Positions 17,036 to 31,261 of a stretch of 58,029 bases of DNA are shown in pieces; within the stretch, counting starts at the first letter, position 1, and the number at the start of each line of letters is the position of its first letter. The stretch lies in sequence record SRR22947725_3534, one strand, 5' to 3'. The position numbers were made by a program, and so were the translations under genes. The notes under the pieces were generated by a model. The model was not told the origin of the DNA, made no database searches, and saw nothing but the letters and a program-made list of their open reading frames with translations.

Positions 17036-20000
17036 ATGGCTACAAAGGATAAAGATTTTGTTCATTTACATGTCCACTCGGATTTCAGTCTACTGGATGG
17101 ATGTTGTCGGATGGATCGTTTAATGGGGAGAGCACAGGAACTGGGGCAGTCCGCCATGGCACTTACAGACCATGGGAACTTATTTGGTACGATTTCGTTT
17201 ATTAAACAGGCTGAAAAACATGGGATTAAACCAATCGTTGGTTGTGAAGGTTACATGGTAACGGATCATAAGAACGATGAGAAACCCGGAAGAGAAAATC
17301 ATAAATCGTACCACATCGGTATGTTGGCGAAGAATTATGAGGGCTATCAAAATCTATCTAAGGTCGTATCAGATGCCCATGTGGACGGATTTTATTACCG
17401 GCCACGAACGGATTTGGAAACCTTGGCGGAACATTCGAAAGGCTTGATCGGGTTTACCGGTTGCATGCAGGGTTGGGTGCCCCAATTAATTCTGCGCGGA
17501 AAAGAGGACGAGGCAGAAAAAGCGATGGGGCAGATGATCGATATTTTTGGAAAAGAAAATTACTTCGTTGAGCTCCATAATCACGGGATTGAAGAACAGG
17601 CTCAACTTGTGCCTGTATTATTAAAATTTGCCAAAAAGTTTGATTTAAAGGTAATCGCATCCAATGATGTGCATTATGTGAAAGAGGAGGACTGGGCTCC
17701 CCATGATGCTCTGCTTTGTATACAGACCGGTTCCAAGATCGACGACGAGAATAGGATGCGGTACGATGCGAAACAGTTTTATTTGAAGTCGAGGGAGCAG
17801 ATGGAGGAGTTATTTAGAGAGGCTCCTGAGTCAATTACCAATACATTTGCCGTGGCGGAAATGTGTGAACTTAAGCTGCCCTTTGGAGAGAATCATTACC
17901 CGGTCTTTACTTTACCACCCGAGATTAATACCAAGGAGGTGGATAATGTGAAATACCTGAAACTTCTTTGTATTGAGGGATTAAAGGGGAGGTATGAAAA
18001 AGAGTACCTGGCTGAGGAACTTCGCGGGGAAGATACCGATGAAAAAGTACGCGAGCTCAGTGAGCGGGTGGATTATGAATTGAGCGTGATTACCAAGACT
18101 GGTTTTAATGACTACTTTTTGATCGTTGCCGATTTTATGGGATGGGCAAGGGACCAGGATATCCCGGTAGGTCCGGGAAGAGGATCGGGAGCGGGTTGCC
18201 TGGTGGCCTATGTTTTAGGAATTACTGATATTGATCCCTTACGATTTGGTTTATTATTTGAACGATTTTTAAATCCAGAACGGGTCTCACCCCCGGATTT
18301 TGATATCGATTTTTGTATGAGACGGCGGGGTGAGGTGATTGAATATGTCCGTGAAAAATATGGTCGCGATTGTGTGGCCAACATTATTACTTTTGGCACT
18401 TTTGGCGCAAAAATGGTGGTGAGAGATGTGGCCCGTGTGCGCGATGTACCCTATGCAGAGGCAGATAAACTGGCGAAAATGGTGCCCGATGATTTAAATA
18501 TCAGTTTGGAGCAGGCCCTGGAAAAGAGTCCTGAGTTTCGACAGGAGTGTGAAACGAATCCAATTGCCAAGCAGATTATCGAGACGGGAAAAGTGATTGA
18601 AGGAATGGTGCGCAATGTGGGAACTCATGCGGCGGGAGTTATTATTGCTGACCGTCCATTACGGGAATTAGTTCCTTTAACCAGTCAGGATGGAGTTTTG
18701 ACTACCCAATTCCCCAAAGACCCAGTGGAGGATTTGGGATTGCTCAAAATGGATTTTCTTGGATTAAAAACTTTGACTGTTATTGCGGCGGCAGAGAAAC
18801 ATATTCGCGAAAAAGAGGGATTTGAAAAATTTCGGGTGGCCGATGTATCGCTTGAAGATGAAAAGACCTTCGAAATATTAAACGAAGCCCGAACAATTGG
18901 GGTCTTTCAATTGGAATCAGATGGAATGCGTCGTTTGTGCAGGCAGATGAATATCTCCAATGTGGATGAGATTATTGCATTGATCGCACTTTACCGCCCT
19001 GGTCCGATGGAGTGGATTCCGGATTATATTAAAGGCAAGGAGGATCCCTCGACGATTAAATTCCCACACCCCTTATTGGAAGAGGTCTGTGAGGAAACCT
19101 ATGGAGTGATGGTCTATCAGGAGCAAGTAATGGAGGCCGCCCGTCGAGTCGCGGGATATTCATTGGGTGGGGCAGATATTTTACGTCGGGCGATGGGAAA
19201 GAAGAAGCCCGAAGAGATGGCCAAGCAAAGAGAGATATTTGTAACTGGTGCAAAAGAGACGAACGAGATTGCCGAAAAGAAGGCCAATGAAATTTTTGAT
19301 ATTCTCGAAAAATTTGCCGGGTACGGTTTTAATAAATCCCACTCGGCTGCCTATGGAATTATCAGCTATCAAACGGGTTATCTGAAGGCTAATTTCCCCG
19401 TTCATTTTATGGCAGGTGTCCTCTCCTGTGAATTGGGTAATTCTGATAAACTATCCCATTTTATAGGCGAGTGTACCGAGATGAAAATCTTGGTCTTGGG
19501 ACCGGATGTAAATGAATCGGGGGAGAATTTTACTCCAGTCGAGGGAGAAGAAGATAAAGCGGATTCAATTCGATTTGGTTTGGCCGCGGTCAAAGGAGTA
19601 GGGGATGCCCCGTCTGGTGTAATAGTAGAGGAGCGAAAAAATGGTCCCTACCTTAATTTCTCTGATTTCGTTGAACGAGTGGAAGGGAAAGCGGTAAATA
19701 AAAGAGTGCTTGAAAATTTGATCAAGGCGGGAGGATTTGATTCCTTGGAGGATAGCCGCTCCGAATTACTTGCTGACTTGGACCGGGCGATGGGGGAGGC
19801 CCAATTGCGGAGGAAAGATAGGGAAGCGGGCCAAGTTAATTTATTTGATATGATGGGGGACGATTCCAGTGGGGGGAACTCGGCTGAAAACGGCGGATTT
19901 GCCCCGATTACGGATCGGCCTTCGGTTCCGAAAATGGATGAGTTGGAAAAATTGGGCTATGAAAGGGCATTACTCGGATTTTTTCTTTCAGGTCATCCAG

Positions 20001-20632
20001 TTGATACTCTTGGTGGATTAGGACCTTTGTTAGACGACATTACTTCTGATCAATTAGATAATTTGGAAAGTAAGCGATCTTTTCGTTTATGCGGAGTATT
20101 ATCTGAAATCGAACGACGATATACCAAAAAAGATGCCAAGCCCTGGGCCCGATTTACTTTAATTGCAAAAGAAAAGGATTTTTCAATCCCCATGTTCCCG
20201 GAGGCTTTTGAGCAATATGGCTTACATTTGGAAGAGGGGAAAATTGTCGTGATGGAGGGAGTTGCATCGAAAAAAGACGGTGAGTTACGAACCAATGTGA
20301 CCAATGTAAGACCGGTTGAGGATGCGATTTCGTCGCTAACCGAGGAAGTTACTTGGTTATTGGACCCGGATCATAGAGGGGCAGAACAATTTACAAAGGA
20401 CATGTTTGCCCTGGGAGAGAAGGGAGAAGGAGGGACTTTGATTCGCCTTGCGTACGCACGAAATGGTGAGGACGAAGGTCTTGTGGTGGAAACCGATAGT
20501 CGATTTTCAATGCGTTTTTCCTCTTCGATTTTTAAGGATTGGCGTAAGCATGAATGTGTCAAGGGGGCACGGGTGCTCATACGAACTCCGGAACCCCCTC
20601 AAGAAAGAAAGTATGGAAAGAAAAATTTTTAA
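17036..20632 (+). CDS. dnaE: DNA polymerase III alpha subunit
   Basis: [18 protein letters not shown] domain, [32 protein letters not shown]. Confidence 0.99.
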
Positions 20633-20645
20633 GCTATCTTCCGCC

Positions 20646-20673
20646 TTGACCTGTGGGCGTGAATCTTTACTTT
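20646..20673 (+). promoter_or_regulatory. Putative sigma70 promoter for rpsU
   Basis: TTGACC-N16-TACTTT ending 13 nt before the ATG. Confidence 0.45.
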
Positions 20674-20686
20674 AAACCTTTCTTAT

Positions 20687-20887
20687 ATGACAATTGAAAT
20701 TAAATTACGTAAAGGCGAGCCTATCGATCGGGCAATTCGTCGTTTAAAAAAGCGCCTCGACCGTGAAGGTACAATACGAGATGTGCGTGACAAGCGTTAC
20801 TTTGCAAAACCTTCCGATAAAAAAAGAGAAGCCCGAAAGGTGGCAGCTTTTACCCAGATGCTTCGTACTCGTTACGAGAAAATGTAG
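20687..20887 (+). CDS. rpsU: 30S ribosomal protein S21
   Basis: GEPIDRAIRRLKK...RYFAKPS; 66 aa and basic. Confidence 0.97.
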   Translation: MTIEIKLRKGEPIDRAIRRLKKRLDREGTIRDVRDKRYFAKPSDKKREARKVAAFTQMLRTRYEKM

Positions 20888-20950
20888 TTTCAAGGGAATC
20901 CTAATTGGATTTCTTGGTAAAAGTTAATTGAGGGGAGATCAAAAAATAAG

Positions 20951-22906
20951 ATGTCCCAATTAAATAATAGAATAACTCCGAGTCTTCGTGCGGAGTGGAA
21001 GTTATTTGATCAGGAAAATTCTTCTTCGATTGAGTACCTTATTCTTTGTGAAAAAATGATCTCAGTTGGTGAGTTTTTGTTAGCCCATGATGTCGCAAAA
21101 GCAGGTCTGAGTATTCACAAAAATGACCGGAAATTATGTCAGCGAGCTGCTCATGCATTAAGCAAGGCAGGGTCTCCAAAACTTGCCTCTAAATTGCTAG
21201 AGGAGTTAGTTGGCGGAGGAGACAGGGGGGTTGAAACACATAGCTTATTAGCCAGTGCTTACAAAGATTTGTGGGAGCAGGCAACCGATTCAGAATCCAA
21301 AAAGCAGTATGCAGAACTTGCAATTGCTCGATACGAGGAGGGCTTTTCCACCAATAGCTTTGATAATCTAAGGACAAGTCAGAGACAGGATTTGGAAACC
21401 CAATATTACCCCTGCATCAATATTTCATTTATGCATTTTTTCTCCGGTAATGATGAGGCTGGAAAAGAATATGCAGAGAAAGCCTGGAAGATATGTGAAA
21501 AATTAAAGGCCGATGGAAAACATGATTATTGGATTCAAGCCACTGAGGCAGAAGCACTTTTACTACTAGGCTCGGTGGACGATGCGGTTTTTTCTTATTC
21601 TGAGGCAGTGAAAATGACCGATGTTAAGCCTTCCTGGATTGCCAGCACTCGTAAACAGGCACTTCAAATTGCAAGTGCCTACGATGAGGAAGAGATCAGG
21701 CAGAAAATACAGAACGCATTCCCCACATTAGGAATTGTGGCATTTTCTGGACATGTCTTGGACCGTCCTGGTTCAATTCCTCGTTTTCCACCCGAAGCAG
21801 AAGAAATTGCGAAAAAAGAAATTGTGGAATCCTTGGAAGAAATGGAGGCAAATTGTGGTTTTAGTTCTGCAGCTTGTGGTACAGATATCTTATTTCTTGA
21901 GACAATGAATGAGAGAGGTGGGGAAACACATATTTTTTTACCCTTTGCAAAGGAAGAATTTATTGAGACGAGTGTGAGACGGGCGGGGGGGAATTGGGTT
22001 GCTCGATTTGAAAGTGTTCTTGATCAGGCGACCTCCATTCATTTTGTGACCAAGGATGGATACAATGGGGAGGACACTCTGTATTCTTTCTGTAATGATG
22101 TGCTACTTGGATTTGCTGCGATGCGAGGCCGTGGATTGGATGAAGATCCCAAGTTGCTCGTATTTTGGGATGGCCAGCCCGGCGCGGAAGGAGGAACTGG
22201 AGAATTGGTGAAAAAATGGCAAAAGAATTTTAATGACCCTGTTATTATTGATGCAAATCGAGTGTTAGATGCAACTCCTGTAGCAAACGAGTTACCCTCT
22301 CACGGCGGAGAGACAAATCCGACATTCCTAATGGGGGGGGATGCTTCCTCAGTATTACCGCGTACAATCAAGACTATGCTTTTTGCAGATGTGGAAGGTT
22401 TTTCCCGTTTAGACGAAAGTAAAACTCCGTACTTTGTGGAAAAATTCCTGGGAGGGATATCCAGTATTATTGAACGACTTTCTGTACCTCCTGCCTTCGT
22501 GAATACTTGGGGAGATAGTTTTTTCGCAGTTTTTGATAAATTAGAAGACGGGGTTGAATTGGCTCTTGAATTACGAGATTATTTTTCTAAAGGAGACTGG
22601 ACTCAATTGGGAATGATGGAGGGGATGGAGGTTCGCATTTCAATGCATGCAGGACCGGCTTATGAAAAATTTGACCCCATCCTGGGAAAGTTAAATTTTT
22701 TCGGAAGTCATGTGAATCAGGCTGCCCGAATTGAACCAATCGTACTGCCGGGTTCTGTCTTTGTTTCCGAAACAGTTGCGGCATTACTTTCTTTTGGACA
22801 TGACGGATTTGATTTTGAATATGTGGGGAATTTAGAACTCGCCAAAAATTTTGGAAGTTATCCGATTTATATTCTACAACGAACTGGTTATCATTATGAT
22901 GAATGA
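20951..22906 (+). CDS. TPR-S/DUF4071 (TRAF-binding-like) + SLOG-like + class III nucleotide cyclase fusion
   Basis: TPR-S motifs ETHSLLASAYKDLW, YYPCIN, DYWIQATEAEA, STRKQ; SLOG-like AFSGH..RFP, SSAACGTDILF, WDG...GGT; cyclase motifs LFADVEGFS, WGD, RISMHAGP, VNQAARIE. Confidence 0.85.
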   Translation: MSQLNNRITPSLRAEWKLFDQENSSSIEYLILCEKMISVGEFLLAHDVAKAGLSIHKNDRKLCQRAAHALSKAGSPKLASKLLEELVGGGDRGVETHSLLASAYKDLWEQATDSESKKQYAELAIARYEEGFSTNSFDNLRTSQRQDLETQYYPCINISFMHFFSGNDEAGKEYAEKAWKICEKLKADGKHDYWIQATEAEALLLLGSVDDAVFSYSEAVKMTDVKPSWIASTRKQALQIASAYDEEEIRQKIQNAFPTLGIVAFSGHVLDRPGSIPRFPPEAEEIAKKEIVESLEEMEANCGFSSAACGTDILFLETMNERGGETHIFLPFAKEEFIETSVRRAGGNWVARFESVLDQATSIHFVTKDGYNGEDTLYSFCNDVLLGFAAMRGRGLDEDPKLLVFWDGQPGAEGGTGELVKKWQKNFNDPVIIDANRVLDATPVANELPSHGGETNPTFLMGGDASSVLPRTIKTMLFADVEGFSRLDESKTPYFVEKFLGGISSIIERLSVPPAFVNTWGDSFFAVFDKLEDGVELALELRDYFSKGDWTQLGMMEGMEVRISMHAGPAYEKFDPILGKLNFFGSHVNQAARIEPIVLPGSVFVSETVAALLSFGHDGFDFEYVGNLELAKNFGSYPIYILQRTGYHYDE

Positions 22907-22918
22907 GAACTTTTTAAA

Positions 22919-24388
22919 ATGATTTCCTCTGCTGACATACCCGAACCTTTTGAGAGTTACTCAGGGGAAGGACCTTATGTATTTGTGAGTTATGCTCACG
23001 CGGACAAGATTCCCGTTTATCAATCTATGCGAGAATTTCGTGATGCTGGGGTTAATATGTGGTATGATGAAGGCATACAACCTGCTGGAGAATGGGTGGA
23101 AGAGATTGCCCATGCCATTAAAAAGTCGGCAATATTTGTTGTCTTTGTATCTCCTCGATCCGTTGATTCCCGCTTTGTTAAAAGTGAGGTGGGATATGCC
23201 CTGAGTGAAAATAAAGATATTCTCACAATTTATCTCGAACATACCACATTGCCAGCAGGACTATCTCTTTGCTTACAACAATTCCAATCGGTCTTTGTTT
23301 CGGAGAAGAATTGGCAGAAAAAAGCCGGCGCAACCTTGTTGGAAAAACTGAATGAAATCCCCAAGTTGGAAAAAGAAACAACTATAGTCGACCGGGGGCC
23401 AGTACCAGTAGATCATGGGGCTGAATTGTGGAAGTCCTGGGACCGGGTATGGATGGTCCAATTAAAGAGAGGTCTACAAAATGCTGAATCAAACGGAATA
23501 CATTCGGAAAATGTGATCTCGAGCAGCCAGACCAATGAGATTAAAAGACCCGTTCAGGAAACGATTCCAGATAAGAGTTCAATTTTAAAGCTTCGCGGTC
23601 GTCCAGGTCGTGGGAAGACAAGGCACCCGCTCGCATTTGATGTATCGATTAATGAAGAGAGCCAGGGCCAGACTGACTTTCCCCAAGGGAATCATAATGA
23701 TTACTATGCGGGAACTTTTTCGTGGATTCCATCCGGTAAGCTATCGATTTGGGTACCCTATGCAGAAGAACAAAGAGTGGTGGAGGTGGAGCACGGTTTT
23801 TGGCTCGGGCAATATTTAGTGACTCAGGAGGTTTACACCCAAGTAATGGGAGCCAATCCCAGTTTTACAGATTCTGAAAGTGATTTATCGAATCAATCTT
23901 TACCGGTAAATAATGTATCCTGGCTGGATGCAGTTGCATTCTCCAAGGCATTATCAATTTTATCATCTACACAAGGAACCTTGCCCGCGGGGTATGAATA
24001 TCGCTTACCTTCGGAAGTTGAGTGGGAATATGCCTGCCGTGCGGGGACATCGAGTTCCTATTATTTTGGCGATGAACCTGCCCAATTACATAACCACGCA
24101 TGGTTTCGTGGAAACAGTGGAAAAAAAATTCATCCAGTTGGATTAAAAAGTCCCAATCCATGGAAATTATTTGATATGTACGGAAATGTTCGTGAATGGG
24201 TGGGGAATTCTTTTGTAAATACATTGTTGAATGATAGTGAGCAGGATGAATTTCGTATTAGTCGGGGGGGTGCTTACATGAAAACTGCGGTGGAATGCCA
24301 ATCATCGACCCGGTCCACAAATTCTTTATACCATCGATTTAGAAATTTAGGGTTCCGGGTTGCTTTGGCTCGTACCAATAATACTTGA
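22919..24388 (+). CDS. TIR domain + FGE-sulfatase/SUMF1-like (C-type-lectin fold) fusion
   Basis: TIR: VFVSYAHAD, WYDEGI, FVSPRSVDS, VKSEVGYA. FGE-like: VTQ..Y..VMG.NPS, PVNNVSW, YRLPSEVEWEYACRAG, NPWKLFDMYGNVREW, RGG, GFRV. Confidence 0.88.
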   Translation: MISSADIPEPFESYSGEGPYVFVSYAHADKIPVYQSMREFRDAGVNMWYDEGIQPAGEWVEEIAHAIKKSAIFVVFVSPRSVDSRFVKSEVGYALSENKDILTIYLEHTTLPAGLSLCLQQFQSVFVSEKNWQKKAGATLLEKLNEIPKLEKETTIVDRGPVPVDHGAELWKSWDRVWMVQLKRGLQNAESNGIHSENVISSSQTNEIKRPVQETIPDKSSILKLRGRPGRGKTRHPLAFDVSINEESQGQTDFPQGNHNDYYAGTFSWIPSGKLSIWVPYAEEQRVVEVEHGFWLGQYLVTQEVYTQVMGANPSFTDSESDLSNQSLPVNNVSWLDAVAFSKALSILSSTQGTLPAGYEYRLPSEVEWEYACRAGTSSSYYFGDEPAQLHNHAWFRGNSGKKIHPVGLKSPNPWKLFDMYGNVREWVGNSFVNTLLNDSEQDEFRISRGGAYMKTAVECQSSTRSTNSLYHRFRNLGFRVALARTNNT

Positions 24389-24471
24389 AGCAGCGGTATT
24401 AATTCATCTGCAATTTTGAGGGATTTCCGTTGCTCTTTTGGGAAAGTAAATTCATTTTCTAGTCTTTTGTG

Positions 24472-25962
24472 ATGAGCGAAGATAAGCCAAATAGTACCCC
24501 TCAACAAGATACTCCACTTGATGGAAGCGATCAATTTGCTGTCCGGCAAGCCAAACTTGAACAGATTCGTGAAAACGGGTTTGATCCATTTCGGTCGAAT
24601 TGGGAACAAACGCATACCTCTACTGAAGCACAATCACTTTTGACTGAAGACATGGAAGAAGGTCCAGAGGTCTCGGTTGCTGGGCGCATAGTGGCATTTC
24701 GTTTGATGGGAAAAGCATCCTTTTTAAAAGTCCTCGACCGAGATGGTAAGGTTCAGGCTTATGTGAGAAAAGATGAAATTGGAGAAGAGGAATATGCCAC
24801 TTTCAAAAAATTGGATTTAGGTGATTTTATTGGTATCCGAGGGAAATTGTTTCGCACTAAGACAGGGGAAGTAACCATCCGTGCACAGGAATATCGCTTG
24901 GTTACAAAAGCCCTTCGTCCACTTCCTGAAAAGTGGCATGGATTAACTGATAATGATCAAATTTATCGTCAACGTTATTTAGATTTAATTGTGAACGATC
25001 AATCCCGTGAACGATTTCGTACACGGAGTCAAATTATTCGAGAAATTCGAGAATTCTTTTGGAATCGGGATTTCTTGGAAGTGGAAACTCCGATGTTACA
25101 ATCAGTTTCTGGTGGAGCAGCAGCCCGACCTTTTCGGACTCATTTTAATGCTCTGGATTGCGATTTTAATATGCGGATTGCCTTGGAACTTCATTTGAAA
25201 AGATTGTTAGTAGGTGGCTTCGATCGGGTTTTTGAAGTGGGCAGAGTTTTTCGAAATGAAGGACTTTCGAGGAGGCATAATCCAGAATTTACTATGTTGG
25301 AGGCTTATCAGGCTTATACGGATTATCGTGGAATGATGGAATTAACTCAGTCCTTGATCCAACAAGTTGCGGAACGTTCTCTTGGTACTTTGCAGTTGGA
25401 GAGAAATGAGGGAGATGTAATTGACCTTTCGGGGAAATGGAGAGAAGCCAAGTACAAAGATTTAATTATCGATGCGGTGGGAAGGGATGACTGGTTTGAA
25501 TTGCCTAAATCCGCCAAGTTGGAAAAAGCCAAAGAACTTCGAATTGAAGTTGATCCAGAGTTAGAAGATTTTGAAGTTACTAATGATGTGTTCGAAAAAA
25601 TTATTGAACACACTCTTATACAACCCACTTTTGTGACCCATATCCCTAAAGAACTTTGTCCTTTGGCTAAGATCACCGAAGATGATTCCAGTACCATCGA
25701 TGTGTTTGAATTATGCATTAATGGCCAGGAGATCGCACCGGCTTATTCTGAACAAAATGATCCTGCCGTTCAGCGTGATGCATTTATGAAACAAGTGGGT
25801 GAGGAGACTCAGGAATTAGATGATGATTTTCTTCTGGCTTTAGAACATGGCATGCCACCGGCCGGCGGCATGGGTTTAGGGGTTGATCGATTAGTTATAT
25901 TTTTGACCAAGGCGGCCAATATTCGGGATACAATTCTTTTCCCTACCCTTCGACCTTTTTAA
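24472..25962 (+). CDS. lysS: Lysine--tRNA ligase (class II)
   Basis: LRPLPEKWHGL, YRQRYLDL, FRNEG, HNPEFTMLE, GMPPAGGMGLGVDRL. An alternative GTG start exists at 24469. Confidence 0.99.
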   Translation: MSEDKPNSTPQQDTPLDGSDQFAVRQAKLEQIRENGFDPFRSNWEQTHTSTEAQSLLTEDMEEGPEVSVAGRIVAFRLMGKASFLKVLDRDGKVQAYVRKDEIGEEEYATFKKLDLGDFIGIRGKLFRTKTGEVTIRAQEYRLVTKALRPLPEKWHGLTDNDQIYRQRYLDLIVNDQSRERFRTRSQIIREIREFFWNRDFLEVETPMLQSVSGGAAARPFRTHFNALDCDFNMRIALELHLKRLLVGGFDRVFEVGRVFRNEGLSRRHNPEFTMLEAYQAYTDYRGMMELTQSLIQQVAERSLGTLQLERNEGDVIDLSGKWREAKYKDLIIDAVGRDDWFELPKSAKLEKAKELRIEVDPELEDFEVTNDVFEKIIEHTLIQPTFVTHIPKELCPLAKITEDDSSTIDVFELCINGQEIAPAYSEQNDPAVQRDAFMKQVGEETQELDDDFLLALEHGMPPAGGMGLGVDRLVIFLTKAANIRDTILFPTLRPF

Positions 25963-25987
25963 GCATCTCCGTTCAATTCCCTCACTA

Positions 25988-26458
25988 ATGAAGGTTAAAA
26001 ACAAGGGAGATCAACAAAAGGTTATAATCAAACCAGTCCTTTGGAGACAGACGGCGTTCACCTTATTTTTGTGTATTACGGCGTTCTTTTTTTCCATGGT
26101 AAATTATTTTGGAGTTCTTTTTAGCTGGGTAGCTATGATTGTCTTTTTTATTTTAGCACTGCTCAATCTATTGGATCAACTTTTTCAATGGTCGCGATTA
26201 TTGATTGATTCGGAGGGTTATTCCTTTCGCGGATGGTGGAGGAAACAGCATTATCGTCATGAAGAAATTGAAAGTTTTGATACTGAAATCTACGCGGCCC
26301 GCCCGCTTATTATAGTGAGTCTAAGAAAGAAATCTCAAAAGTTAAGGGGACTCAAAGATGAACCCATTGCATTTCCGTGTACATTTGGAAGACCGGTCGA
26401 GGATATACTGAAGGTTTTGCGTGACAACCACGACAAAACACCTCGTGCACTAGTCTAG
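25988..26458 (+). CDS. Hypothetical two-TM membrane protein
   Basis: 156-aa ORF directly after lysS; two hydrophobic helices followed by a soluble beta-rich domain. Confidence 0.65.
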   Translation: MKVKNKGDQQKVIIKPVLWRQTAFTLFLCITAFFFSMVNYFGVLFSWVAMIVFFILALLNLLDQLFQWSRLLIDSEGYSFRGWWRKQHYRHEEIESFDTEIYAARPLIIVSLRKKSQKLRGLKDEPIAFPCTFGRPVEDILKVLRDNHDKTPRALV

Positions 26459-30100: not shown

Positions 30101-31168
30101 CTATTCAGTCTCCCCTTGTAGTGAGATAGAATTAAGAAAAGAGATAAAGTTACTCTTTTCTTTTTCAGCAAGTGTGCGGTTTCCAATTAATTTGAAAAAC
30201 CACGACTCTTTTTCTAAAAAGAGAGTACCAGCTAGAACTGCTTTTTCTTCTCCGTAGGCTTCGACTAAATGAGCGGAGTTTCCCGCTAGGGTAATGGAGC
30301 TACAGTACTGGTCGAGGGAAGCCTCTTGGATTGGGGCGAGATCAATCTGTCCAATCCATCTGTTCACATTCGCAAGTAATCCACCCACGTCACCGGGGAA
30401 AGAAGTCACTGAAATATCTAGCTGCGTTCCATTGGGACCCGCTACTTTATAACTTCCGATTCTCATCGAAGAGGCCTTGCCTTCACTCCAAGTGGAGGGT
30501 TTTGACCAAGACCAAGGATTTTTGGGTGGTTTGGCTGAGTTGGTATTTCCCGTTTTGGGCAACGGGGCAGGCGATCTGGCAAGGATCGGCTTATTTTTCT
30601 CAGACCGGAGGGAGCAGGATTCAAGAAACTGAATAAAATTTTCCGATTCTTTCAGTACCAATTTTTGATCTGCGATAAAGGGAAAGAGCCATGTGTCTTT
30701 ATCCTGCCTTAACAATGCGAGCAGAGCAGTTCGCGGTGGTGAGGATGCAGTTTCTACTTTGCTATTGAGATACACCCATTCAAAAATTCGATCCCCTATT
30801 TTTTTTTCCTGTAAAAAAGGGGTTAGATTTTCTTGATTAAAAGGGGGGTATCCCATTTCGCGTCCAAACATATTTGCCACATCAACAGTGGATACATTTT
30901 CCCGAAATGGCATAACTCCAATTCGTCCTTGCGGACCGCTTTTCGTTTTTACATGAAAAGAACCTGCCATGGGTCCTGATAAATCAGGGTTTTCTCCCCA
31001 GTTTGGAGGGAGTTTCCAGGATACAATGGGTCCGTCATATTCAGATGGAATGGAGAAGGATTCGATCTTTGGTTCCTCAGAACAAGATAGAATAAATAGG
31101 AGTACAGGAAGAGGGTACAGAAACCGGAAGAGGGTGGAATTAAATTTTTGGATCAAGGTCGAAAGCAT
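30101..31168 (-). CDS. Hypothetical lipoprotein heading the cytochrome c biogenesis operon
   Basis: Lipobox ILSC; two related units (WKLPPNW.../WSKPSTW...GGLLANVNRW...WFFKL); 2 nt from the resB-like gene. An alternative start exists at 31207. Confidence 0.7.
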   Translation of the reverse strand: MLSTLIQKFNSTLFRFLYPLPVLLFILSCSEEPKIESFSIPSEYDGPIVSWKLPPNWGENPDLSGPMAGSFHVKTKSGPQGRIGVMPFRENVSTVDVANMFGREMGYPPFNQENLTPFLQEKKIGDRIFEWVYLNSKVETASSPPRTALLALLRQDKDTWLFPFIADQKLVLKESENFIQFLESCSLRSEKNKPILARSPAPLPKTGNTNSAKPPKNPWSWSKPSTWSEGKASSMRIGSYKVAGPNGTQLDISVTSFPGDVGGLLANVNRWIGQIDLAPIQEASLDQYCSSITLAGNSAHLVEAYGEEKAVLAGTLFLEKESWFFKLIGNRTLAEKEKSNFISFLNSISLQGETE

Positions 31169-31261
31169 AGTAGTTTGATTTTCCTTTTTGAGCAAAGGAG
31201 ATGACACAAGATTATAATTCTATGAAAATAAACTTTCGAGGCAAGCGTGGGGAGCTAAAAA

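Follow-up and report, generated by a model that had tools for sequence, protein, structure and literature searches.

Here we describe a pair of co-oriented genes at positions 20951 to 24388 of SRR22947725_3534, a stretch of 58,029 nucleotides that is called the window throughout. Gene 1 combines TPR-S repeats, a YpsA-like domain of the SLOG superfamily and a class III cyclase. Gene 2 combines a TIR domain with an FGE/C-type-lectin-like domain. Close homologues belong to marine metagenome-assembled genomes (MAGs) of the Opitutales/Opitutia (Verrucomicrobiota), and in this Opitutales lineage the pair behaves as a fixed core gene pair. The link between gene 1 and TIR genes is functional and recurs in distant phyla. 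We propose that the pair may form a Thoeris-like relay in which the TIR protein makes an NAD-derived signal, the TPR-S/SLOG region senses it and the cyclase makes a cyclic nucleoside monophosphate (cNMP). This reading is given an even chance. The choice between anti-phage defence and a domesticated physiological or stress-signalling role is likewise roughly evenly balanced. The features of the pair are as follows.

20951..22906, plus strand: gene 1, TPR-S + YpsA-like SLOG + class III cyclase, 651 amino acids (open reading frame (ORF), Pfam, AlphaFold2)
20984..21718, plus strand: TPR-S helical repeat region, residues 12-256 (Pfam, model)
21734..22270, plus strand: SLOG-superfamily Rossmannoid domain, YpsA-like, residues 262-440 (fold comparison, invariant columns)
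22361..22882, plus strand: class III cyclase catalytic domain, residues 471-644 (Pfam, Foldseek, residue alignment)
22907..22918, plus strand: spacer of 12 nucleotides from the gene 1 stop to the gene 2 ATG (ORF positions)
22919..24388, plus strand: gene 2, TIR + variable linker + FGE/C-type-lectin-like domain, 489 amino acids (ORF, Pfam)
22979..23323, plus strand: TIR domain, residues 21-135 (Pfam TIR_2, ThsB_TIR)
23186-23188, plus strand: codon of the candidate catalytic Glu90 (codon check)
23369..23758, plus strand: poorly conserved linker, residues 151-280 (orthologue comparison)
23762..24364, plus strand: FGE-sulfatase/C-type-lectin-fold domain, residues 282-482 (Pfam, PDB sequence search)

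Domain architecture of the gene pair

The AlphaFold2 model of gene 1, built with 36 homologues, has a pLDDT of 85.2 and a pTM of 0.85. It predicts helical repeats (residues 12-256, with thirteen helices), then an alpha/beta domain of six strands (262-440), which a disordered linker connects to the cyclase (471-644). No signal peptide or transmembrane segment was seen by eye. Residues 54-161 match Pfam TPR-S with 50.3 bits against a cut-off of 27.6 (E 3.9e-13). A homologue search with residues 1-445 returned mostly fragments of Opitutales orthologues, together with a few proteins of about 185 amino acids at 30-34% identity.

The whole gene 1 model retrieved cyclases only in Foldseek, and the middle domain was therefore folded alone (pLDDT 88.8). 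The resulting model matches YpsA (2nx2) with a Foldseek E of 6.5e-8 and a VIA-align Z of 17.3, with 164 of 178 residues aligned at a root-mean-square deviation of 3.4. After YpsA, VIA-align places DprA (Z 12.1), ShosA (11.8), LOG-type proteins (9.4-8.6), TRPM2 (9.4), the Moco carrier protein MCP (8.7) and the SLOG domain of BcThsA (6.5). The top 13 rows consist of YpsA, DprA/ShosA, LOG-type proteins, TRPM2 and MCP, all of which we take to be members of the SLOG superfamily. Sequence profiles are silent on this domain. Residues 257-445 match no Pfam family at E up to 1, apart from one chance match at 0.2, and a profile of 41 sequences finds nothing below E 0.7 among PDB sequences; membership of a curated SLOG family was thus found in neither Pfam nor PDB. 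The assignment holds despite this silence because the predicted fold ranks SLOG-superfamily structures first. Among 36 family members from several phyla the residues G267, H268, D271, R278, F279, C309, G310, D312, S341, W349, R352, G414, G415 and T416 are invariant, and the pocket-type motifs G-H-x-x-D, C-G-x-D and G-G-T are kept in all 36.

The C-terminal domain of gene 1 is a class III cyclase by family and by fold. Residues 475-631 match Pfam Guanylate_cyc with 52.8 bits against a cut-off of 21.9. The top Foldseek matches are class III cyclases (TMt 0.78-0.87 to solved cyclase domains), including Rv1900c (1ybt; E 8.4e-9, 24% identity), and the FVNTWGDSF motif was verified in the sequence. 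Asp480, Asp522, Asn589 and Arg593 align with their counterparts in Rv1264, 3mr7, Ma1120 and the beta subunit of soluble guanylate cyclase (sGC). We take the two aspartates to be metal-binding and the Asn and Arg to be transition-state residues. All 36 family members compared share D480, D522 and R593, and the window protein also has N589. From these residues the cyclase is probably active. The positions that specify the base are unusual. Asn518 stands at the position of Lys (Glu in sGC) and Asn582 at the position of Asp (Cys in sGC), N518 being kept in at least 90% of the 36 sequences. Neither canonical pair (Lys/Asp for ATP, Glu/Cys for GTP) was found in the residue alignment, and the product cannot be read from the sequence because both positions are Asn.

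Residues 21-135 of gene 2 pass the cut-offs of two TIR families, TIR_2 (68.7 bits, E 8.5e-19) and ThsB_TIR (33.8 bits, E 4.6e-8). The motif VKSEVGY occupies residues 87-93. Its Glu90 is invariant in 17 of 17 gene 2 orthologues, down to 40% identity, and aligns with the Glu after the conserved Trp in the bacterial TIR chain 7uxr; it presumably corresponds to the TIR catalytic Glu. PADLOC (database version 2023) gives only weak generic TIR matches for gene 2. The TIR domain is followed by a linker (residues 151-280) that matches no Pfam family and is the only fast-evolving, least conserved part of the gene, with 24-59% identity to the window among 13 orthologues and a mean dN of 0.38. Its end may be a beta extension as in TvpA-type domains.

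The C-terminal part of gene 2 (residues 282-482) matches Pfam FGE-sulfatase with 118.6 bits (E 4.7e-34). By sequence its best solved relative is Treponema denticola variable protein 1 (TvpA, 2y3c), at E 1.2e-23 versus 2e-6 for FGE proper. No NCBIfam enzyme model comes near its cut-off for this domain. The C-terminal segment holds a single Cys, the invariant C460, as judged by eye and outside any residue-level alignment to FGE. A PDB search with the last 64 residues returned a chance ribosomal match only. The domain is probably a non-enzymatic, lectin-fold ligand-binding domain and would be the sensor of gene 2. The kinship with TvpA also raised the reading of a variable protein of a diversity-generating retroelement (DGR). 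This was rejected because the C-terminal segment is nearly invariant: the equivalent of the variable region is conserved in 14 orthologues, in which the last 45 or so residues are nearly identical.

Most of this anatomy had been outlined in an earlier note made from the sequence alone. Pfam, fold and catalytic residues agree on the class III cyclase that it placed at about 22367-22885, and the SLOG-like domain that it saw at about 21730-22230 is borne out on structure. Its TPR-S repeats were recovered by Pfam. The accompanying label "DUF4071-like" suits relatives of gene 1, in which PF13281 matches fall on the TPR part, and does not suit the window's own gene 1, in which Pfam finds no PF13281. 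The TIR domain with a conserved Glu in VKSEVGY was recognised correctly, and the description of the FGE domain as non-catalytic is plausible from the sequence comparisons.

Linkage of gene 1 relatives to TIR genes

A scan of one genome per species yielded at least 557 confirmed relatives of gene 1, counted within the first 600 pattern matches. The linkage analysis used the best 80 of these loci, of which 23 are from Opitutales and 57 from elsewhere. In the 57 non-Opitutales loci Pfam TIR_2 was found in 12 of 24 co-oriented downstream neighbours and in 3 of 28 co-oriented upstream neighbours. With jackhmmer a TIR ORF lies within about 6 kb in 26 of the 57. In 15 loci it directly neighbours the gene 1 relative in the same orientation, and in a further 6 it is an immediate neighbour on the opposite strand. 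The pairing was seen in Spirochaetota, Pseudomonadota, Acidobacteriota, Planctomycetota, Lentisphaerota and a delta-proteobacterium. On the gene 1 tree the TIR-linked loci fall into several separate clades, which include Spirochaetota (7/7), a proteobacterial clade and an acidobacterial clade. One Chthoniobacterales clade has no TIR nearby.

The TIR domain is the sole element common to these partners. Their other domains vary and may be TPR, Sel1, WD40 with ankyrin, CHAT with cyclase, FHA, FGE and LysM, or unassigned. By analogy, such variable partner domains are the pattern of ThsB-like sensors. The earlier note's view that the two genes are linked is thus confirmed at both depths, within the genus (21/23, see below) and as a recurrent TIR pairing across phyla.

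Inheritance and expression in Opitutales

Twenty-five genomes of the genus (G001-G025) and 16 further genomes from other families of the order were searched. Gene 1 is present in 23 of the 25 and in none of the 16. In the two genus genomes without it, G003 (79% complete) and G017 (84% complete), no lysS orthologue is found either; the absence of gene 1 there is uninformative because the site itself was not assembled. Of the 23 genus genomes with gene 1, 21 have a full-length gene 2 orthologue directly behind it. In the five genus genomes searched for cyclases, gene 1 is one of three that are conserved in all five, and each of these genomes encodes 4-5 cNMP_binding proteins.

Fifteen genus loci were fetched. 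rpsU (91-97% identical) stands directly before gene 1 in all 15, and lysS (81-92% identical) is present downstream in 14, the contig of G018 stopping inside gene 1. The order rpsU, gene 1, gene 2, lysS is found in 13 of the 15. Relative to the window, gene 1 is 62-90% and gene 2 50-84% identical in these loci. Apart from the variants described below, the pair occupies this rpsU-lysS site in each Opitutales assembly that covers the site. The gene order is unchanged even in the most divergent members found, with gene 1 52-57%, gene 2 40-55% and dnaE 67-72% identical. The gap between genes 1 and 2 is -4 to +17 nucleotides in most Opitutales loci. For G026 and G031, which represent other families of the order, the lysS locus came with 1.5 kb of flank; no rpsU lies in it, and no empty site was demonstrable within that flank.

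Both genes are present in marine RNA libraries from 3 studies. Contigs from these libraries span the junctions of rpsU with gene 1, of gene 1 with gene 2 and of gene 2 with lysS. The rpsU-gene 1 junction is bridged in 4 of 4 runs examined, and in one run a 5.7-kb contig from 20677 covers rpsU, gene 1, gene 2 and lysS. These contigs are compatible with transcription of the pair together with its housekeeping neighbours.

A proposed relay and the alternatives to it

In the proposed relay gene 2 would be a cytoplasmic TIR enzyme whose C-terminal FGE/C-type-lectin-like domain binds a cue. Upon binding, the TIR domain would, as in its family, use Glu90 to convert NAD+ to an ADP-ribose-derived signal. 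Gene 1 would read this signal through the TPR-S repeats, the pocket of the YpsA-like SLOG domain or both. The C-terminal class III cyclase, as a dimer, would be switched on and would make a cyclic mononucleotide, whose targets would be cNMP-binding proteins encoded at other loci of the genome. We infer every biochemical step from domains, residues and linkage. The direction from TIR through SLOG/TPR-S to the cyclase fits the anatomy of the pair better than the reverse.

Several observations weigh against a Thoeris-like relay. The defence-island context and the patchy or mobile distribution of Thoeris-type systems were not found here. The ten neighbouring ORFs in a family scan are housekeeping genes or have no family, and composition along the window has no G+C step between the pair (0.39-0.45) and its flanks (0.39-0.48). 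The window's gene 1 matches no PADLOC model at E up to 1. The folded domains of gene 2 diverge about as core genes do, with dN of 0.048 for TIR and 0.081 for FGE versus 0.068 for lysS and 0.053 for dnaE. Synonymous sites are saturated (dS 1.8-2.5, with usable dN/dS in 2-9 of 15 pairs), and for this reason dN and identity are used and no claim of selection is made. The pair is unlike typical defence genes because of its fixed core site, its housekeeping flanks, the absence of a G+C break and the low dN in its folded domains. The earlier note had proposed a conflict module inserted between core genes. As a defence island this is not supported, since the rpsU-lysS site is common to the lineage, the flanks are housekeeping genes, composition does not change and PADLOC is silent on gene 1. 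In this lineage the two are core vertically inherited signalling genes, the very outcome that the note had named as speaking against its proposal.

Other evidence of this kind concerns the coupling of the two genes. No TIR ORF lies within about 6 kb in 31 of the 57 distant loci, among them 10 of 10 cyanobacterial loci on the tree. The ligand of gene 1 need not come from a neighbouring TIR, because the SLOG and TPR-S invariants hold in loci without TIR too. Within the lineage, one genus genome (G004, L030:6028-9680, G004:C26) keeps gene 1 but lacks gene 2 at the site, lysS beginning about 200 nucleotides after gene 1. A Puniceicoccaceae MAG (L058, 5959-9129) carries a 371 amino acid gene 2 orthologue, 36 nucleotides after gene 1, that consists of linker and FGE domain and has no TIR. 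Its gene 1 and its rpsU and lysS flanks are intact and the FGE part matches the window's at E 5.5e-108. This locus is a natural TIR deletion. Lastly, the RNA evidence consists of assembled contigs, in which DNA carry-over is not excludable and a single transcript not provable.

A further reading is that of an immune-type TIR-to-cNMP relay, with NAD-derived and cyclic-nucleotide messengers in series, that has been domesticated as a core regulator. It would probably be transcribed with rpsU and lysS, and its FGE domain would sense a constant endogenous or environmental cue and not phage. We regard this as possible, if doubtful. The TIR-less relatives that keep the sensor motifs, L058 without TIR and G004 with gene 1 alone favour two further readings, one built on an endogenous nucleotide and the other on direct contact. 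In the former, gene 1 would be a housekeeping cyclase that senses a metabolite such as NAD+, ADP-ribose or a related nucleotide, without any role in conflict, and TIR-FGE would tune the pool or be loosely associated. Vertical inheritance at one core site with divergence like that of core genes, probable expression with rpsU and lysS in seawater RNA libraries, the place of gene 1 among the three cyclases conserved in the genus, the 31 distant relatives without a nearby TIR and the gene 1 of G004 all agree with it. It is harder to reconcile with TIR linkage that recurs in independent clades, with partners whose variable architectures, CHAT included, resemble immune sensors, or with an nSTAND NTPase as a neighbour; moreover, the portions of the literature cited here report TIR, SLOG and TPR-S mainly from conflict systems (10.64898/2025.12.03.692087, 10.1101/2023.05.26.542521, PMC9503650). 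A purely housekeeping cyclase is considered unlikely. With direct contact, the gene 2 protein would bind the TPR repeats of gene 1 and regulate the cyclase without a diffusible product, the TIR domain being an adaptor or secondary. L058 retains an FGE-only gene 2 beside gene 1 with the FGE domain still strongly conserved, and TPR repeats commonly bind proteins. One preprint, in the part cited here, also describes a BcTir-BcTpr complex that is needed for defence (10.1101/2023.05.26.542521). On the other side stand Glu90 and other TIR residues, whose invariance in all 17 orthologues suggests an enzymatic constraint on the TIR domain, and the SLOG pocket motifs, which are invariant across phyla whatever the architecture of the partner. 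In addition, the TIR is the only shared partner element because the non-TIR domains differ completely between clades. A direct protein switch is considered distinctly unlikely.

Two other schemes would reassign the parts of gene 1. Its SLOG domain might be an enzyme with LOG-type N-glycosidase chemistry that acts on the TIR product or another nucleotide, and the cyclase would use or answer what is made. The invariant polar residues H268, D271, R278, D312, S341, R352 and T416 would suit an active site of this type, and the LOG clade of the superfamily is catalytic according to the passages cited from PMC9503650. Its nearest structures are YpsA and DprA (Z 17.3 and 12.1) and not LOG enzymes (Z 9.4 or less), and neither Pfam nor the PDB profile search gave a sequence match to LOG families. 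An enzymatic SLOG domain is considered highly improbable. Alternatively the order might be reversed and resemble Pycsar, such that gene 1 senses a cue by TPR and SLOG and makes the cNMP that activates gene 2 as a TIR NADase effector. Pycsar, which 10.64898/2025.12.03.692087 also mentions, does pair a class III-type cyclase with TIR or transmembrane effectors, and among 36 gene 1 relatives 8 give weak matches to PycC models of PADLOC (best E 2.4e-8). Against this order, the PycC models give no match to the window's own gene 1 at E up to 1, and a Pfam search at the same threshold detects no cNMP-binding domain in gene 2, whose one unassigned segment, the linker, is its least conserved. Further, the variable repeat domains of the partners look like sensors and not receivers, and two domains of ligand-sensor type precede the enzyme in gene 1. 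To this reversed order we assign the smallest probability of all.

Relationship to known systems

In type I Thoeris the SLOG domain binds 3' cyclic ADP-ribose (3'cADPR), the product of the TIR protein. The present pair resembles this system (ThsB with the SIR2-SLOG protein ThsA) in that a TIR protein accompanies a SLOG effector, that gene 2 passes ThsB_TIR and that the SLOG domain of BcThsA (7uxs) is matched at Z 6.5. Its differences are a SLOG domain that resembles YpsA and DprA far more than ThsA, the lack of SIR2, and an output that would be synthesis of a messenger instead of depletion of NAD+. When gene 1 was compared with the named effector types (ThsA and ThsC-ThsL), neither the 2023 PADLOC database nor the Thoeris models of NCBIfam gave a match at E up to 1. 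YpsA-clade SLOG domains have been tied to sensing of cyclic ADP-ribose (cADPR) in the passages cited from PMC9503650.

The closest likeness in logic is to type VIII Thoeris, as set out in the preprint text cited (10.64898/2025.12.03.692087). Its effector ThsI joins a TPR domain, the presumed cADPR sensor, to a nucleotide hydrolase and answers canonical cADPR. The TPR domain is said there to be the one that Aravind and colleagues predicted for TIR signalling. Both type VIII Thoeris (ThsB TIR with ThsI, CMP-hydrolase-like with TPR) and the present pair are two-gene units with a TIR protein beside a soluble protein that combines TPR with a Rossmann-like domain, and in both the TIR product would activate the neighbour. 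They differ, as far as ThsI is known from that description, in that the output here is a class III cyclase and the Rossmannoid domain is YpsA-like SLOG. The TIR protein here also bears an FGE/lectin-like domain, and the pair is core and syntenic and lies outside a defence island. No cyclase is named as a Thoeris effector in the main text of this preprint, which is to be read apart from its Table S1 and Figure 1.

Associations among TIR, TPR and YpsA/SLOG were described as already known in the earlier note, and they are indeed in print as cited by 10.64898/2025.12.03.692087 and 10.1101/2023.05.26.542521. The latter cites TIR-TPR and YpsA-TPR gene assemblies from Burroughs & Aravind 2020 (J Bacteriol e00365-20). 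Like the present pair, these assemblies center on a core TPR protein, with TIR, YpsA, LSDAT, patatin or calcineurin neighbours and predicted NAD-derived signals. As summarised in the citing preprints they are made of separate genes and no cyclase fusion is mentioned, although the original may list one. A search of the literature, apart from supplements and Burroughs & Aravind 2020, found no description of a TIR gene paired with a TPR-S/SLOG-cyclase gene. The FGE domain has relatives of its own in conflict systems. It is nearest TvpA, and FGS domains likewise carry another domain on their N-terminal side in the part of the eLife survey PMC7159879 cited here. Unlike TvpA, gene 2 has no sign of DGR-type hypervariability.

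Pycsar consists of a PycC cyclase and a TIR or transmembrane effector that is activated by cNMP. The present pair likewise sets a TIR protein beside a class III-type cyclase, with cNMP as the presumed messenger, and differs in that the TIR protein has no cNMP-binding domain, the cyclase has no PycC match and the predicted direction is opposite. The mycobacterial adenylyl cyclase Rv1900c/LipJ has non-canonical specificity residues, with Asn in place of the Lys, and is active nonetheless. Gene 1 resembles it in fold (1ybt) and through a weak match to the NCBIfam LipJ model, and differs in its N-terminal regulatory modules and in having Asn at both specificity positions. The earlier note did not recognise the pair as a named system, and the named systems of PADLOC and NCBIfam likewise contain no match to it.

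New here are a partner in which TIR is fused to FGE, vertical inheritance over a long time at a core site, and natural variants that lack TIR or gene 2. To our knowledge all characterised bacterial TIR signalling systems culminate in killing or arrest of the cell by an effector, which may be an NADase, a pore, a protease or a nucleotide hydrolase. If the proposed relay is correct, the activation of a cyclase by a TIR product would couple two second messengers in series and would be a new output class for Thoeris-like immunity. With two messengers chained, amplification or branching would be possible. If instead the relay has been domesticated, the at least 557 relatives would represent an unrecognised class of TIR-controlled cyclases that links two second-messenger systems in many phyla. 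The Opitutales case, a module kept long as a syntenic core pair with little amino acid divergence, bears on how immune parts become ordinary regulators.

The locus and its surroundings

The two genes are co-oriented, 12 nucleotides apart and set between core genes at exactly the coordinates first noted. The flanking genes are dnaE, rpsU, lysS, ccsA, resB, ychF and proteases, of which the nearest are the following.

17036-20632: dnaE, upstream of rpsU
20687..20887, plus strand: rpsU, ribosomal protein S21 (ORF; 63 nucleotides upstream of gene 1, co-oriented)
24469..25962, plus strand: lysS, lysyl-tRNA synthetase (ORF; 80 nucleotides downstream of gene 2, co-oriented)

Downstream of lysS is a 156 amino acid membrane ORF, then ccsA and resB on the opposite strand. 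The membrane ORF (25988-26458) encodes a protein with two transmembrane segments that has no Pfam family at E up to 1e-5 and is kept downstream of lysS across the lineage at 38-69% identity. A conserved ORF of 367 amino acids beside resB (30101-31207) likewise has no Pfam family at E up to 1e-5. A scan of 20400-26100 gave 6 promoter-like sites versus 9.7 expected and 5 terminator-like sites versus 5.8 expected, none of them in intergenic gaps, and is uninformative. The stretch between dnaE and rpsU (20640-20680) holds the ends of RNA-library contigs from two studies, at 20670-20674, and the start of one contig, at 20677, directly behind TTGACC...TACTTT. A contig from a third run reads through this point. 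Position 20677 or thereabouts may be the transcript start for rpsU, gene 1, gene 2 and lysS.

Paralogues and variant loci

FGE-sulfatase paralogues are strongly expanded in the genus genomes; a single genome of 3.1 Mb has as many as 19 matches, and the domain frequently lies within open frames of 500 to 3471 amino acids. Extra TIR paralogues of 485-818 amino acids also occur in these genomes (L129, L130, L131). Elsewhere in G004 (L128:5207-7694) a 255 amino acid TIR ORF is directly followed by a 567 amino acid FGE-domain ORF.

Some of the distant loci have unusual neighbours or architectures. In a gammaproteobacterial MAG (L070:7969-12984) the neighbour of the gene 1 relative is a protein of 1672 amino acids with TIR, CHAT, a second class III cyclase, FHA, FGE-sulfatase and LysM. 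A Casimicrobiaceae MAG (L115:2629-5874) has an nSTAND1 NTPase of 1082 amino acids directly upstream of the gene 1 relative and co-oriented with it, and a TIR ORF lies 3.3 kb further up. The cyanobacterial relatives (L067, L072, L073, L075, L092, L095, L114 and others) are longer, at about 745-771 amino acids, with an N-terminal RyR domain where scanned (P0111, Calothrix). Six TIR-less loci of Chthoniobacterales/Verrucomicrobiota (L064, L069, L083, L101, L103 and one more) share a conserved upstream pair of about 288 and about 392-416 amino acids. CobW_C was found in 6 of 28 upstream neighbours scanned, presumably those of these same loci. The PADLOC model PDC-M72A, which stands for a candidate system, is matched at E 4.4e-143 by one of the downstream neighbours of gene 1 relatives.

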